Positions 21,919 through 53,723 of a stretch of 53,723 nt of DNA are shown one piece after another (the first letter of the stretch is position 1; each line of letters opens with the position of its first letter). The notes under the pieces are model-generated. The model searched no databases. It had not been told where the DNA came from and worked only from the letters and a program-made list of their open reading frames with translations. This DNA comes from Lentimonas sp. (lineage in GTDB: Bacteria > Pseudomonadota > Alphaproteobacteria > Rickettsiales > UBA1997). The stretch lies in contig JBLHVR010000002.1 in the NCBI GenBank assembly GCA_047628655.1, positions 1 to 53,723 of the forward strand. Direction: 5' to 3'. The position numbers and the translations under genes are program-made.

Positions 21919-21942
21919 ATAGCAATTATAAATAATTAAGAA

Positions 21943-48040: not shown

Positions 48041-49246
48041 TTAGAAGTTAATTTGAGCTCTTAACAAGAAGGCATCGAAATCTTTATCATCTTGACCTTT
48101 TTCTTCAGTAGAAGATTGAACATAATTGGCCATTAAACGAATATTATTGTTTAAATACCAATTTACACCAAGGGTAATTTGACTAGATTCCCCTTCAATA
48201 AGAAGCGTTCCTTCATCATCATTTCTGTCATTTTTAGAAAATCTGGCTGCCAATTCCCAAGCTCCAATTCCACCATTCTTACCGACTGGTTTTTCAACTT
48301 TAACACCTTTGAAAGTTCCAGATTTAACCTGATAAACTCTATTTTCTCCAGTTAATATGTAAGAAATTTGAGCGTAATAGCTGTCATATGTGGTTGATTG
48401 GTTGGCTGTTGTGGCAGAACCATCCTTGTCATAATTGGTTTTATTGATGATATATTCACCTTGAAGTGACCAAGAATTTAGCCCAAGCGCAATCTCTGCA
48501 CCGAAAAGATTCTCTCTGTCAATTTTTTCTGGCGTTCCTGAATTATCCCTATCTTTAGAAGATGTTGTAGCAGCAAGACCTAAATGAACTAGTTTTCCAT
48601 CAGAATTAACTGGGGCGATGGAAGCACGAATTGAAGCTGAATATTTACTGTCATCACTTCTGCTCTCGTTTCCGGTTGATTCACCAAAAATTCCAGCAGC
48701 AATTTGCCAATTTTTACCGTAAGTTTGAACTCCCAAACCAACTGCTCTAGAAGGCGCAGCATCTACAGCGGCAGATCTGTTCATAAAAGTAATATTGTTT
48801 GAGCTAGTTAATTCTTCCAAAGAGAAAAATTGCTTAAATTGACCAACTTTAAATTGGGTATTTTTTAAGCCGTCATAAGCAATGAATGCGTCTTTAATTT
48901 TTGAACCATTTTTAGCAAAATCATTTTCGAATTTGTAGCTAAAATTTTCTGAAAGCTTGCCTTGTATGCCAAGTCTGGCTCTGGTGATGTCGAATCCATC
49001 TTGTCTATTATCTCCTAGACCTGAATTTTCATCATAAAACTCTGCGTCAACATGAAGACGACCGGTAATTTTAGCGGTTTTAAATGCTTTTAATAATGGA
49101 GCTGGAAGACTAGCTGAAGTTTCTTCGAATTTTGATTCTAATGCTTTTAATCTGGCTTCAAAGTCAGAATCTTTGTCAGCAAATGCCGAACTTGATACAC
49201 CAATCATTGAGGCACAAATTGTGGTAGTTGCTAATATTATTTTCAT
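48041..49246 (-). CDS. phosphate-selective porin O/P family outer-membrane protein
   Basis: Signal peptide, N-terminal coiled-coil segment (FEARLKALESKFEE), alternating beta-strand pattern and C-terminal Phe (AQINF). Length 401 aa. Confidence 0.85.
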   Translation of the reverse strand: MKIILATTTICASMIGVSSSAFADKDSDFEARLKALESKFEETSASLPAPLLKAFKTAKITGRLHVDAEFYDENSGLGDNRQDGFDITRARLGIQGKLSENFSYKFENDFAKNGSKIKDAFIAYDGLKNTQFKVGQFKQFFSLEELTSSNNITFMNRSAAVDAAPSRAVGLGVQTYGKNWQIAAGIFGESTGNESRSDDSKYSASIRASIAPVNSDGKLVHLGLAATTSSKDRDNSGTPEKIDRENLFGAEIALGLNSWSLQGEYIINKTNYDKDGSATTANQSTTYDSYYAQISYILTGENRVYQVKSGTFKGVKVEKPVGKNGGIGAWELAARFSKNDRNDDEGTLLIEGESSQITLGVNWYLNNNIRLMANYVQSSTEEKGQDDKDFDAFLLRAQINF

Positions 49247-49347
49247 GATTTCGATGAGATTTTTTTGATAAAAAATAAATAGTTTAAAAAAGTTGAAATT
49301 AAAATAATTACTTCTACCTTGCTGTCAATTAAATACTTCAATTTTTA

Positions 49348-49680
49348 TTGAATAATAAAATGAACAACCAAATAGCGGTAAATTTATTAAGTATTTTAGG
49401 AAGTGATGTTCGATTACCAATCTTCAAAATGTTAATTCAAGCTGGAGAAAAAGGATTAAATCCTAAATATATTTCTGATGAATTGGCAATAAAGCCAAAT
49501 AAGCTTTCATTTCACCTAAATGGCTTGAAAAAGTCGGAATTAATTAGGTGCGTGAAAAAAGGACGGGAGATGGTTTATTACGCAAATTATCAAACAACTA
49601 GAAATTTAGTTGAATATTTATTTGATAATTGCTGTAACGACGACGAAACAGATTGTTTGGATGTAAATCTTTGTAATTAA
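49348..49680 (+). CDS. arsR: ArsR/SmtB-family transcriptional regulator with C-terminal Cys cluster
   Basis: Winged-HTH core (RLPIFKMLIQAGEKGLNPKYISDELAIKPNKLSFHLNGLKKSELI). The alpha3 CxC site is absent. The C-terminus is FDNCCNDDETDCLDVNLCN. The start is TTG at 49348 or ATG at 49360. Confidence 0.8.
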   Translation: MNNKMNNQIAVNLLSILGSDVRLPIFKMLIQAGEKGLNPKYISDELAIKPNKLSFHLNGLKKSELIRCVKKGREMVYYANYQTTRNLVEYLFDNCCNDDETDCLDVNLCN

Positions 49681-49804
49681 AAATTTGCATCTTAAAAATA
49701 CGACCCTATAAAACGCGACCATCAAAGCTACATACTTTGATTAATTGGCAAATTTAACTGCCTTCTAATTTTTTTATTTATTAACTTTAATTAGCAGTTA
49801 CCTT

Positions 49805-50815
49805 ATGTCTAAAATTATAAAAACCTCCATATTTATCTTCCTTCTTTTCTCCCAAAATTCCTTTGCTCGTGACTACATCCGCATGGCTGGATCTTCAACA
49901 GTTTACCCTTTTGCCAGAAGTATTGCTGAAGAATTTGGCAATAATAGTAAATTCAGAACTCCAATTGTTGAAGCAACTGGAACTGGTGGCGGAATTAAAT
50001 TATTTTGCTCTGGAGCTGGTGAAAAATTTGTCGATTTTGCTAACGCATCCAGACAAATAAAAGAAACCGAAGTGAAAGTTTGCAACAGAAACGGCGTTAA
50101 AAATATCGTTGAAATAAAAATTGGTTATGACGGAATTGTTATTGCAAATTCTAAGGAATCTGCAGCCTTTTCTTTAACTAAAGAACATCTCTTCTTGGCT
50201 TTGGCCAATGAAATTTCTCAAAATGGTAAATTAATCAAAAACCCTAATGAGAAATGGAGCGATGTTGATAAATCATTTCCTAACAATCCAATCGTTGTTT
50301 ATGGACCTCCTCCAAGCTCAGGAACTAGAGACGCTTTTGTAGAATTAGTTTTGGAAAAAGCTTGTGTTAAAAAGCCAGCCTTTATCGCCGCTTATCCAGA
50401 CAAGAAAAATCGTAAAAAGAAATGTCACATCGTTAGAAGTGACGGAAAATTTGTTGAAGCTGGCGAGAATGATAATTTAATCATTCAAAAACTAACAAAC
50501 AACAAAGATGCTTTGGGTATTTTCGGATTTAGCTTCCTAGAGCAAAATGCTGGAATAATTCAAGGTGCCAAAATTGATGGTTCTTATCCAACCTTTGAAA
50601 ACATAGCTTCTGGTAAATATCACATTAGCCGCCCTCTATTTATTTACTTTAAAACAGAGCAGCTTCCATTTGCTAAAGGCTTAAAAGAATTCATCGCTGA
50701 AATTGTTAGTGAAAATGCAATCGGTGAAGATGGATATCTAGTTGAGAAAGGATTAATTCCACTAGAATCAGATGTAATATCTAAGATGGAAAAAGACATT
50801 TTGAGCGGTTTGTAA
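49805..50815 (+). CDS. pstS: PstS-family phosphate ABC transporter substrate-binding protein
   Basis: Signal peptide, then IRMAGSSTVYPFARSIAEEF...ATGTGGGIKLFC...GPPPSSGTRD, typical of the PstS/PBP-like-2 family. No pstCAB follows. Confidence 0.88.
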   Translation: MSKIIKTSIFIFLLFSQNSFARDYIRMAGSSTVYPFARSIAEEFGNNSKFRTPIVEATGTGGGIKLFCSGAGEKFVDFANASRQIKETEVKVCNRNGVKNIVEIKIGYDGIVIANSKESAAFSLTKEHLFLALANEISQNGKLIKNPNEKWSDVDKSFPNNPIVVYGPPPSSGTRDAFVELVLEKACVKKPAFIAAYPDKKNRKKKCHIVRSDGKFVEAGENDNLIIQKLTNNKDALGIFGFSFLEQNAGIIQGAKIDGSYPTFENIASGKYHISRPLFIYFKTEQLPFAKGLKEFIAEIVSENAIGEDGYLVEKGLIPLESDVISKMEKDILSGL

Positions 50816-50838
50816 TTAATTTTACTTACTACCCAAAA

Positions 50839-50868
50839 TTACTATGCGGCCTTAAAACCACATAGTAA
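50839..50868 (+). terminator. hairpin 24 nt after pstS (candidate terminator, no clear U-tract)
   Basis: ttactatgcgg (50839-50849) pairs with ccacatagtaa (50858-50868): 10 bp with one mismatch and an 8-nt loop. Confidence 0.4.
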
Positions 50869-50965
50869 GTTAAGTGATAATTCAGTTAACTAAACATAAC
50901 ATTACGCTATGATTTTTGTACCATTAGCAGCTATTATCTTGTTATCTTTAGTAGCATAGCACTGA

Positions 50966-50993
50966 GCTAAATCACCAAATTTGGTGATTTAGC
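50966..50993. repeat. perfect 28-nt palindrome gctaaatcaccaaatttggtgatttagc
   Basis: Checked base by base: position 50966 pairs with 50993, and so on inward to 50979/50980. Confidence 0.9.
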
Positions 50994-51038
50994 CGAACTA
51001 TTATCATTTAATTGATAAAGTTGCGATTTTAAATCGCT

Positions 51039-51070
51039 TCTGGTGGCAGAACTCAGAATCTGTCACCAGA
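51039..51070. repeat. 12-bp inverted repeat / hairpin (tctggtggcaga ... tctgtcaccaga)
   Basis: 51039-51050 pairs with 51059-51070: 11 Watson-Crick pairs plus one G-T/G-U position, with an 8-nt loop. Confidence 0.85.
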
Positions 51071-51198
51071 AATCAAAGCACCAAATCATAAATTATTTCC
51101 CCCCAAAATCGCAAGTAGTTTTATTTTGATCTTTTCTTTACGGATCATATTATTACAATTACTGCAAATTAATTTCCGCGAAACATCTTTAATCTCCA

Positions 51199-52248
51199 AT
51201 GAACTACTCATTTTTAAAACCTTTACTTTTTAGGATAGACCCAGAGAAAGCACATAATTTGGCAATTTCCGCTTTAAAACTTGGCCTGGTTCTAAACCCC
51301 AAAACTAAAGAATATTCTTCTCTGCAAAATAAAGTTCTAGGAATTAACTTCAAAAACCCCATCGGAATGGCGGCAGGTTTTGACAAAAATGCCCAAATTT
51401 TTAATAATTTATTCAGATTCGGTTTTGGTTTTGTAGAAGTTGGAACCGTAACTCCCGAGCCACAAATTGGTAATGAAAAGCCGCGAATTTTCAGACTTGA
51501 AGAAGATCAGGCAATTATTAACCGCCTGGGTTTTAATAATTTGGGAATTGAAAGATTTTTGCAGAATATTAAGAAAAGCAAGAAAAATGGCATTCTAGGA
51601 ATTAACATTGGCAAGAATAAAGACACCAAAAACGCGATTGATGATTACCTTCTATTACTTGAGAAAACCGCCAATAAAGGTAATTACATCACTATTAACA
51701 TCTCTTCACCTAATACGAAGAATTTACGAGATTTACAAAAAGCAGATGAGCTTGATGTTTTTTTAAAAACAATATTTAACAAAAAAAAGGAGCTTAAAGT
51801 CAACACTCCAATTTTACTTAAAATCGCTCCAGATTTAACAAAAGAAGAGCAAGAATCTATCGCCCAAATTGCTCTTAAAAACAAAATTGATGGTTTAATA
51901 ATTTCTAATACCACAATTTCTCGTCCAGAAAATCTACGAAGCAAATTCAAGTCTGAAACTGGTGGCCTAAGCGGAAAGCCATTATTAAAAGACTCTAATC
52001 AAGTTTTAAGCAATATTTACCAATTAACTCAAGGACAAATTCCAATAATCGCCGTTGGTGGAATTTCCTGCGCGGGAGATGTTTATGAAAAATTAAAACT
52101 CGGAGCATCTTTAGTTCAAATTTACTCAGCCTTCATTTATCAAGGATTTGATTTAGTTGAAAAAATAAAAGAAGAATTAGATGAGATGATTAGGAAAGAT
52201 GGTTTTAAGAATGTGAGAGATGTTATTGGAATAAATTTCACCAAATAA
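51199..52248 (+). CDS. pyrD: dihydroorotate dehydrogenase (quinone), class 2
   Basis: PIGMAAGFDKNA, GFGFVEVGTVTP, NRLGFNN, NISSPNT, ISNTT, GGLSG, AVGGI motifs. Length 349 aa. Confidence 0.95.
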   Translation: MNYSFLKPLLFRIDPEKAHNLAISALKLGLVLNPKTKEYSSLQNKVLGINFKNPIGMAAGFDKNAQIFNNLFRFGFGFVEVGTVTPEPQIGNEKPRIFRLEEDQAIINRLGFNNLGIERFLQNIKKSKKNGILGINIGKNKDTKNAIDDYLLLLEKTANKGNYITINISSPNTKNLRDLQKADELDVFLKTIFNKKKELKVNTPILLKIAPDLTKEEQESIAQIALKNKIDGLIISNTTISRPENLRSKFKSETGGLSGKPLLKDSNQVLSNIYQLTQGQIPIIAVGGISCAGDVYEKLKLGASLVQIYSAFIYQGFDLVEKIKEELDEMIRKDGFKNVRDVIGINFTK

Positions 52249-52267
52249 ACAAGATCTTAAGGGTATA

Positions 52268-52840
52268 GTGACGGTTAAAAAAAGGCTTCACAATATTTAC
52301 AAACCAACCCATAAAATGTCCCATGGGACACTGATAGTTTTTATCATAAAAACTGTCCGAAAAAATGTAGCCACATCACAACAAGCCCAAACCGAAAACT
52401 GGAGCAAAGAACACCTACTCTTCGCCATTAAAAGAGCCAAAAGACCAATCGACCCCAACCAAACCACAATCCTAAAACGCCCCACCGATCCAACTTTCCT
52501 TTATGAAGCTGAAATAATCGAAGTAATCGACGGCGACACCCTCCTCCTAAACATCGACCTCGGATTCGGAACCGCCCGAAAACAAAGAGTCCGCCTATCC
52601 AGCCTAAACTGCCCAGAAATCAACACCCAAAAAGGCCAAGATTCCTACCACTTCCTACGCGACAAAATGTCACAAATAACCACAATCATGATCAAAACCC
52701 GAAAAATAGACATCTACGGCCGATATCTTGGCCACATCTTCTACGACGAAACAGGAATGATGGAAAGAGGTGAGGTTTTTAATGAAGGGGTTTATTTGAA
52801 TGAGGAGATTCTGGTGGAAGATTTAGCTGAGGTGGTTTAG
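52268..52840 (+). CDS. thermonuclease (staphylococcal nuclease, SNase-fold) family protein with atypical base composition
   Basis: VIDGDTLLL, RVRLSSLNCPE (compare RLxGIDxPE) and IDIYGRYLGHIF (compare DxYGRxL) are SNase-fold motifs. GTG start in the track; ATG at 52316 is an alternative. Confidence 0.75.
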   Translation: MTVKKRLHNIYKPTHKMSHGTLIVFIIKTVRKNVATSQQAQTENWSKEHLLFAIKRAKRPIDPNQTTILKRPTDPTFLYEAEIIEVIDGDTLLLNIDLGFGTARKQRVRLSSLNCPEINTQKGQDSYHFLRDKMSQITTIMIKTRKIDIYGRYLGHIFYDETGMMERGEVFNEGVYLNEEILVEDLAEVV

Positions 52841-52955
52841 AGAGGTTTATGGTTAATAGAAAGAGCATGACCCATCTGCTTTTTTAATTTTACGAAAGTA
52901 TCGCTAAAAATAAAGAGGTCAGGCCACTTTTATATTCAGATTAAATTTTTCTTTA

Positions 52956-53723
52956 TCACGCATCTTTCAGGATTTTTATCACAAATCTTTTTGTGTATTG
53001 ATCGTATTGATACCAATCTCCATTTTCATCTTGAAAATATCCTGTCATGTGACCATTTCCTCCTGCTCCATCTCGATCAATTCTAAAAGCAATAGCATTA
53101 TTCTCCGCCGCATTCTTCCCAATCATCTGCCCTGAGAATATATTATCTGCAATTTCTTCATCACTCAACCCAACTGCGTTACCTGTAAAGATAGAAGAAT
53201 AACCTCCAATTAAGCCAGATAGTTCTATTATTTGCGCATTACTTAACCCACCAAAGTTGTTATCTAATATTTCCGCACCTAATTCTCCAGCAACCCCACT
53301 AACGGCTCCACTAGCACAATCATTTCCTCCAGCTTCTGCCATTCCACAACCCAAGATGGCATGAAGTGCCAATTGTTTTGTTTTGCCAATCTCTCCAAGT
53401 TTATAATCTGTTCCAATCTTATTGGCAGCCAAACTTCCAGCCACAGCAATAACCATATTAAACAATTGGTCTGTGAATGCTTCACTAAATGAATCGCCGT
53501 TAATAGCAGATTGTACAGCACTGCTAGATGCACTGGAAACAACAGCTCTTGCTGCAATTCCAGTGTTACTACCAGAAGAAATAGCCCCACTTAAAAGATT
53601 AGTATCAACCCAATTCGTAGCACCTAAAGTTAATGCCGCAGTTGCACCAGCAACAGCGTAACTTTCAAAAGCTTCTCTGCTAGTTGTTGCATCCCAAGTT
53701 GCTTTGTTAATGTCCTTAACTTG
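52956..53723 (-). CDS. C-terminal end of a large polymorphic toxin / filamentous-hemagglutinin (CdiA/FhaB-like) protein, with pre-toxin VENN-type motif; gene continues beyond the window
   Basis: I translated the frame upstream of the track's TTG start and it stays open to position 53723 (...QVKDINKATWDATTSREAFESYAVAGATAALTLGATNWVDTNLLSGAISS...). LALHAILGCGMAEAGGNDCASGAVSGVAGELGAE and GKNAAENN (AENN at 53108-53097) are typical of the PT-VENN region. 46 aa follow the motif. Confidence 0.8.
   Translation of the reverse strand, partial: QVKDINKATWDATTSREAFESYAVAGATAALTLGATNWVDTNLLSGAISSGSNTGIAARAVVSSASSSAVQSAINGDSFSEAFTDQLFNMVIAVAGSLAANKIGTDYKLGEIGKTKQLALHAILGCGMAEAGGNDCASGAVSGVAGELGAEILDNNFGGLSNAQIIELSGLIGGYSSIFTGNAVGLSDEEIADNIFSGQMIGKNAAENNAIAFRIDRDGAGGNGHMTGYFQDENGDWYQYDQYTKRFVIKILKDA

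Follow-up and report, generated by a model that had tools for sequence, protein, structure and literature searches.

The 53,723-nt window analysed here is an entire metagenomic contig (JBLHVR010000002.1, assembly GCA_047628655.1, deposited as Lentimonas sp.), and the feature under study lies at its far end, where the minus strand carries the 3' end of a gene of the CdiA type, the toxin-bearing component of two-partner-secretion (TPS), contact-dependent inhibition (CDI) systems. Positions 52956-53723 of that strand form a single reading frame of 255 codons, closed by a TGA at 52956-52958 and open to the window edge, as the initial annotation had anticipated in taking the gene to be larger than the 169-aa open reading frame (ORF) listed. 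Because the window is the whole contig, the gene is cut by the end of the assembly; De Bruijn unitigs of four public ice-metagenome runs extend 170-389 nt past nt 53723, in run X1 through a unitig of 1004 nt. The features of the locus, together with the loci of relatives referred to below, are collected in Table 1.

Domain content of the CdiA-type fragment

A Pfam scan of the fragment matched the pre-toxin region DUF637 with 49.4 bits against a cut-off of 26.6 (E 5.8e-13), a similarity far beyond chance, and most of the 27 homologs found, the fragment's own protein aside, also contain DUF637. PT-VENN (PF04829) was not matched in a Pfam scan of the whole 255-residue fragment and reached 16.9 bits (E 0.007) on an isolated 66-residue segment, under the Pfam cut-off of 20.3. 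Two homologs, P0017 (26.7 bits) and P0011 (22.1 bits), both about half identical to the fragment (48% for P0017), pass PT-VENN at the position aligned to the corresponding block of the window. The PT-VENN region named in the initial annotation carries the AENN motif and aligns with these homologs, the fragment itself remaining under the cut-off. The block is the recombination boundary between the conserved part of the gene and its variable tip. AENN occupies residues 206-209 (nt 53097-53108) and is followed by exactly 46 residues (nt 52959-53096) before the stop, the same count and coordinates as first reported. Upstream of the tip the fragment has a G+C content of 41%, against 34.6% for the window. 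A look-up of the exact fragment protein found no record.

The homologs lie on contigs of about 1.5 Mb. At locus L001 a long array of modules stands behind a 3152-aa TPS/Fil_haemagg_2 protein. Each module consists of DUF637, a VENN motif and a tip, small ORFs lie between the modules, and several modules carry frameshifts or are cut. Together with DUF637 and the PT-VENN-like block, this arrangement supports the CdiA/FhaB-type 3' end proposed from the first inspection. When the L001 proteins were searched against the window, matches were confined to 53091-53723.

Table 1 Features of the window and of related loci.
Feature	Location	Strand	Basis or remark
DUF637 ('possible hemagglutinin') pre-toxin region	window 53298..53699	-	residues 9-142 of 255; Pfam PF04830
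PT-VENN-like block ending in AENN	window 53094..53204	-	residues 174-210; sub-threshold PF04829 and aligned homologs
N-terminal 33 residues of the toxin domain, 'His box' (AIAFRI...GHMTGYFQDENGDWYQYDQ; AIAFRIDRDGAGGNGHMTGYFQDENGDWYQYDQ)	window 52998..53096	-	tblastn, family alignment, AF2 model
13 codons YTKRFVIKILKDA and TGA, unrelated to the toxin family	window 52956..52997	-	no similarity after YDQ
AT-rich spacer, 115 nt, 29.6% G+C, no gene	window 52841..52955	.	expected position of the missing domain part and of the immunity gene
SNase-like nuclease gene, convergent neighbour	window 52268..52840	+	Pfam SNase, 23.6 bits against a cut-off of 21
Intact toxin and lipoprotein genes	L002 65-1793		
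Intact toxin and lipoprotein genes	L017 3-1119		
Intact toxin and lipoprotein genes	L019 3717-5619	-	
Rotamase_2 gene	L001 14341-15207		
Rotamase_2 genes	L004 1219-2085 and 11674-12540		
Rotamase_2 gene	L024 4467-4973		

The tip and its full-length relatives

The clear counterpart of the tip was found in P0003, a protein of 432 aa that bears AVAFRLEPSSDPRNPYGHMSGYFQDKNGQWYKYDQ directly after an ANN motif, where the window has AIAFRIDRDGAGGNGHMTGYFQDENGDWYQYDQ; the two are 63% identical across the PT-VENN and tip segments. In tblastn searches the C-terminal toxin region (CT) of P0003, residues ~274-432, aligned to the window through YDQ (nt 52998) and no further. P0003 continues for about 125 residues where the homology ends, and this remainder left no remnant in any frame anywhere in the window; nor did the tip sequence after YDQ resemble any full-length CT compared. 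The breakpoint falls between nt 52998 and 52997. A plain frameshift or nonsense mutation was rejected in favour of a deletion or rearrangement, since nothing of the CT persists past YDQ in any frame. Only 33 of about 145 toxin-domain residues are retained, so that about three quarters of the domain are missing, including the conserved Cys of the TNNC motif and its helix; the homology stops 81 residues short of the Cys position. The conserved His is residue 225 (nt 53049-53051), within a GHM (residues 224-226) that aligns with the invariant GH of the family alignment (A2) and with His24 of the structural model described below. Pfam and NCBIfam searches with the tip and with the full CT gave no family and chance-level matches only.

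A phmmer search with the P0003 CT against 1.84 billion representative proteins returned 99 relatives at E<=1e-3, nearly all covering the query from positions ~8-22 to ~150-166. Family members sit at the C-termini of TPS/Fil_haemagg proteins (P0034, of 3828 aa, P0030 and P0047) and also in Rhs proteins, right after the DPxGRD core end (P0038, P0041, P0044, P0053, P0054 and P0063). The window protein and P0004 are the only two of the 99 that match query positions 1-41 alone. The 33 tip residues thus belong to a larger unit, a portable polymorphic-toxin domain of about 145 residues of which they are the N-terminal part, and do not form a domain by themselves. The N-terminal part of A2 has an invariant G-H, Q-D and W, all kept in the window, and the C-terminal part has the conserved motifs Y[RN]LxTNNCxDAxQ and PxPNxYFxxLK, both missing from it. 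The His box of A2 (positions 19-45, GHxxxYxxxxNGQWYxYD) also bears a non-significant resemblance (E 0.18) to the His box of ubiquitin-specific proteases (USP36, USP4), which may be convergence among enzymes of the papain-like kind.

An AF2 model of the intact P0003 domain, computed on A2, had a pLDDT of 89.6 and a pTM of 0.87. The part homologous to the window comprises its first three β-strands (7-13, 24-30 and 36-43). In the model strand 2 opens with His24, and Cys122 forms the N-terminal end of a helix, a predicted arrangement that is a hallmark of papain-like enzymes. The top Foldseek match in the PDB was TseH (6v98; E 3.6e-4, probability 1.0, TM 0.57/0.52), followed by the H-box/NC proteins CLN5 and Aichivirus 2A, all of them permuted, His-first folds of the papain/NlpC-P60 type. 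Two family members gave weak Pfam matches to Lnb_N (DUF4105) at the YRLxTNNC region, that is, at the Cys motif; the family profile searched against PDB sequences gave no TseH match. The tip, which the initial annotation could not assign to any family, can on this basis be placed in a widespread family that has no Pfam model, occurs on CdiA and Rhs scaffolds and is predicted to adopt a TseH-like permuted NlpC/P60 fold.

In each of the three full-length loci checked (L002, L017 and L019) a lipoprotein gene lies directly 3' of the toxin gene and overlaps its stop; at L002 it occupies 1344-1793. The encoded proteins, of 135-149 aa, have a signal peptide and a lipobox-like Cys, are 38-53% identical between the three loci and are likely to be the periplasm-facing immunity partner of the intact domain. 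TseH is toxic solely in the periplasm and is neutralised by TsiH (PMC4453574). TseH, Tox-Act1 and DUF4105 are clades of permuted NlpC/P60 enzymes, and Tox-Act1 is a periplasm-acting phospholipase in which His-to-Ala and Cys-to-Ala substitutions each abolish toxicity (PMC12994826). By analogy, the intact domain would be a His/Cys hydrolase that works in the periplasm and cleaves an acyl-ester or amide bond, with phospholipid or cell wall as its target. The same analogy with Tox-Act1 and TseH suggests that the window copy, in which the Cys helix and some three quarters of the fold are missing, could not be catalytically active.

Absence of an immunity gene and the junction in reads

Three cognate immunity lipoproteins and the CT, searched by tblastn against the whole window, gave nothing (best E 0.8). 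The lack of an immunity gene pointed out in the initial annotation was thus borne out, the spacer leading directly into the convergent SNase-like gene; its figure of 12 codons for the longest minus-strand ORF downstream was slightly off, as the nearby minus-strand ORFs reach 29 codons, the longest (52779-52868) running antisense into the SNase-like gene. No terminator-like site was found in the spacer and no tRNA near the break, and the 160 nt past the break had no match beyond chance elsewhere in the window or in the fetched loci.

In run X1 a single unbranched unitig of 383 nt spans 52741-53123 with 0 differences and holds the 3' end of the SNase-like gene, the spacer, the break, the tip and the IGKNAAENN-coding part. 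The truncation junction is therefore real DNA and not a join made by the assembler. An assembly artefact, in which unrelated pieces had been joined at a repeat into a chimera, is a very unlikely explanation of the arrangement as a whole, given that the critical junction lies inside this unitig. Such a join could have formed at the VENN-coding 31-mer (53094-53124), which is common to at least two other contigs with other tips and other upstream parts and stands at a depth of 37-55 against 9. The tip unitig is at 5.3x in X1 and its flanks at 9.1x, and in X2, X3 and X5 the upstream part is present at 100% identity and this tip is absent. Only the link from the tip to DUF637, upstream of nt 53124, could be mis-paired, and the truncation verdict is unaffected by it. 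The depth gap and the runs without this tip point to a population that is polymorphic at the junction, which is what recombination at a toxin locus would be expected to produce. The same metagenome contains at least two further VENN-bearing contigs, at a depth of ~10-11x.

With residues 1-33 of the tip aligning to the start of a ~145-residue domain, and with the Cys and the immunity gene absent from the window, we regard the tip as truncated. The feature is very probably a 3'-truncated, disarmed cdiA-CT remnant and not a small effector, a CdiA-type gene 3' end whose tip has been deleted from residue 34 on together with the immunity gene. The analysis shows the domain content of the fragment, the truncation point and the absence of the Cys and of an immunity gene, as well as the modelled fold of the intact relative and the way in which relatives arrange such modules in arrays. 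In the scenario that we propose, the intact form of the tip would act as a hydrolase in the target periplasm and would be blocked by the small lipoprotein encoded directly downstream. The gene in the window would have lost its toxin tip from residue 34, and its cognate immunity gene with it; what is left, three β-strands and the His with no nucleophile Cys helix, would give no active toxin and would need no immunity gene. Decay within polymorphic-toxin loci is a known phenomenon, of which this feature is a further case.

A second short allele with the same breakpoint

P0004, encoded on a contig from a different metagenome (L003, 232-973), is an orphan module that starts on the stop of an immunity-like ORF homologous to ORFs behind other modules. 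Its PT-VENN part (43 codons compared) is 76% identical to that of the window at the nucleotide level, with 20 codons differing by synonymous changes only and 5 by non-synonymous ones; for the tip (33 codons) the identity is 84%, with 4 synonymous-only and 7 non-synonymous codons. The higher identity of the tip implies that its ancestor is more recent than that of the flanking pre-toxin region, and hence an exchange at the VENN boundary. For this one allele pair the non-synonymous/synonymous difference between tip and PT-VENN part gave a Fisher p of 0.02, and the raised non-synonymous share in the tip is consistent with relaxed constraint. Past the shared breakpoint the similarity between the window and L003 was not above that of shuffles (p=0.62, 23 nt available), and P0004 does not share the window's 13-residue tail. 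In L003 an ATG one base after the P0004 stop opens MFYKFII, after which the contig ends.

Several observations weigh against taking the window copy for a mere remnant. The P0004 tip ends in ...WYQYDQ followed by TAA, at exactly the breakpoint nucleotide of the window (directly after GATCAATA), and between the two alleles all family-invariant tip positions are unchanged, substitutions falling only at family-variable positions; the common end point might indicate that the 33 residues are kept as a unit and are not debris. The DUF637 part is joined to the tip through the repeated 31-mer, a pairing that holds for only part of the population. Loss of function is suggested by residues that are missing from the sequence. 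Finally, the contig ends 8 codons from the typical start of orphan modules in relatives, so that the gene could be either an orphan module or full-length.

Two diverged alleles with the same end point and conserved invariant residues are what might be expected if the 46-residue tail worked as a very small effector or were kept as a terminus without enzymatic function. We consider this extremely unlikely: in the model the 33 residues are three strands of a larger fold that would have no active site without Cys122, the 13 residues following them are not part of P0004, the tail has neither a hydrophobic segment nor an immunity gene, the short forms make up 2 of 99 family clusters, and the non-synonymous/synonymous ratio is raised in the tip. 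Of the two options left by the initial annotation, a tip truncated by rearrangement is thus retained and a very small novel effector is set aside.

The simplest reading of the shared breakpoint is one inherited truncation followed by further rearrangement, although the break may also be a recurrent one. A word-indexed profile search with A2 returned 12 proteins and no more short alleles, and a DNA-pattern scan of metagenome contigs for HM[ST]GYFQD found no further truncated copy, its yield being two more full-length copies (L017 and L019) and six chance matches. A more speculative idea, which we hold to be decidedly unlikely, is that the His-box stub is a recurrent or maintained end state, either a preferred recombination or deletion site that disarms CdiA modules or a landing pad that captures a new tip-plus-immunity cassette; the disarmed filament would then be kept for adhesion, not killing, in these Rickettsiales-like genomes of about 1.5 Mb.

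Main cdiA gene or terminal orphan module

The usual gene order of these systems is cdiBAI, which places cdiB upstream of cdiA and, here, beyond the contig end, where the TPS domain and FHA repeats of this gene would also lie. The disarmed tip could belong to the main, full-length cdiA gene, its filament being kept for CDI-independent roles such as adhesion and aggregation. The frame runs off the contig still open and unitigs go on for at least 389 nt upstream with no branch, the fragment holds more upstream cdiA homology than some orphans (for example P0004), and the ratio of 20 synonymous to 5 non-synonymous codons indicates strong purifying selection on the PT-VENN part. We nevertheless find this alternative doubtful. 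In relatives the main TPS protein precedes long arrays and the module beside the flanking genes is an orphan; the homologs on long contigs are all modules of 217-439 aa that typically begin with M(K)MNAEGDIFKQVKDISK, 8 codons upstream of the window edge. The additional VENN-bearing contigs of similar depth suggest several modules per genome, and no cdiB/TPS gene was seen in the 53.7-kb window, for which no search with a cdiB/TpsB profile or sequence was made and in which the gene, expected beyond the edge, would be missing anyway.

We therefore infer that a terminal orphan module is the likelier identity of the disarmed remnant, and a probable one, since the copy abuts a convergent gene at the locus edge and since other VENN-bearing contigs occur at similar depth in the sample. 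On this view the window copy would close a CDI array at its distal edge, as a decayed orphan cdiA-CT module that abuts a housekeeping-type gene. A comparable end is seen at L024, where the final array module, P0020, is degenerate, with a tip of ~36 residues and a gap of ~600 nt to the next gene.

Other features of the arrays in relatives are listed here as side observations. At L001 (1-5104) the 3152-aa TPS protein ends without a VENN motif and overlaps a 384-aa ORF whose C-terminal part is like the P0017 CT, which suggests that the main cdiA gene of L001 is frameshifted, whether in reality or through a long-read assembly error. The orphan arrays of relatives repeatedly include a Rotamase_2 (parvulin-type) gene encoding 168-288 aa, either within the array or at its end, and one array has two copies (Table 1); its product may serve there as chaperone, immunity protein or cargo. 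Just past the end of the CdiA array, at L004 13141-13673 and on related contigs, lies a ParD/ParE toxin-antitoxin pair.

Genomic neighbourhood

The nearest pyrD genes (74-75% identity) are found in metagenome-assembled genomes (MAGs) labelled Rickettsiales bacterium. There pyrD is followed by dxr and not, as in the window, by the SNase-like gene and cdiA, and no orthologous copy of the window junction was found in relatives by pyrD synteny. The genes that lie just beyond dxr in the MAG locus L006, among them proS, are at 21.9-24.3 kb of the window (21940-24314), ~28 kb away; dxr itself is not in the window. These differences in gene order indicate that the region has been rearranged relative to the related MAGs. 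The porin-pstS block is inverted in the window with respect to L006 (compared regions 21940-24314 and 48041-52840).

The SNase-like gene marks the boundary of the locus and does not belong to the toxin system. Its G+C content of 43% contrasts with 34.6% for the window and 32.7% for the adjacent pyrD. Since a 40%-identical SNase homolog adjoins pstS in the related Rickettsiales MAG L006, the gene looks resident rather than clearly foreign at the sequence level; the initial annotation described this convergent nuclease as foreign-looking, which is what the homolog speaks against. No homology was seen for the first ~78 codons of the annotated ORF, which may be non-coding. In this 5' part a stretch of about 45 nt (52338-52382) has a unitig depth of 64-103x against ~3-9x in its flanks in three ice-metagenome runs, with loose unitig ends on both sides; it is shared with far more abundant DNA and is not a tRNA. 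A short segment inside pyrD (51508-51540) stands at 57-80x and is probably a k-mer conserved in abundant relatives.

Significance and comparison with known systems

For annotation, the 46-residue tail should not be called a novel mini-toxin; a disarmed CdiA tip can be recognised by the presence of the His box and the absence of both the Cys helix and an immunity gene. Modest interest attaches to three by-products, the intact tip family, the lipoprotein partner and the shared breakpoint, and the intact domain with its lipoprotein is a clean candidate pair for a test of lipid against cell-wall attack by this clade. More broadly, CdiA and orphan arrays that are visibly turning over take up tens of kilobases in the ~1.5-Mb genomes of uncultured Rickettsiales-like bacteria. 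Such arrays are unexpected in streamlined genomes and suggest strong kin competition in the ice or freshwater habitat.

The closest parallel is with orphan cdiA-CT/cdiI modules; cdiA-CT fragments that are degenerate and lack cdiI have been on record from the first description of such modules onwards (Poole et al. 2011, PMC3150448). Like these modules, the cdiA fragment of the window has a pre-toxin region and a VENN-type motif before a variable tip, and its homologs stand in tandem arrays behind a TPS/FHA protein. Unlike them, it has AENN in place of VENN, a tip cut 3' after 33 residues and no cdiI.

With TseH of Vibrio cholerae (VCA0285, 6v98) the intact tip domain shares the permuted papain-like order of His and Cys, the GH motif and, as in TseH/TsiH, an immunity gene directly downstream, and TseH acts in the periplasm (PMC4453574). 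TseH is delivered by a type VI secretion system and not by CdiA, no match at the sequence level was found with the family profile against PDB sequences, and the window keeps only the His-box quarter of the domain. The Tox-Act1 and DUF4105 (Lnb) clades (PMC12994826) have the His-first, Cys-second core of the intact tip family; compared by description, the immunity protein of Tox-Act1 has two transmembrane helices, whereas the partner here is a lipoprotein. Phospholipase activity is a feature of Tox-Act1; the target of the present tip family may be either lipid or cell wall. Among Rhs-CT toxins the identical domain occurs after DPxGRD in full-length copies on a different delivery scaffold, a distribution that shows the domain to be a portable polymorphic-toxin tip.

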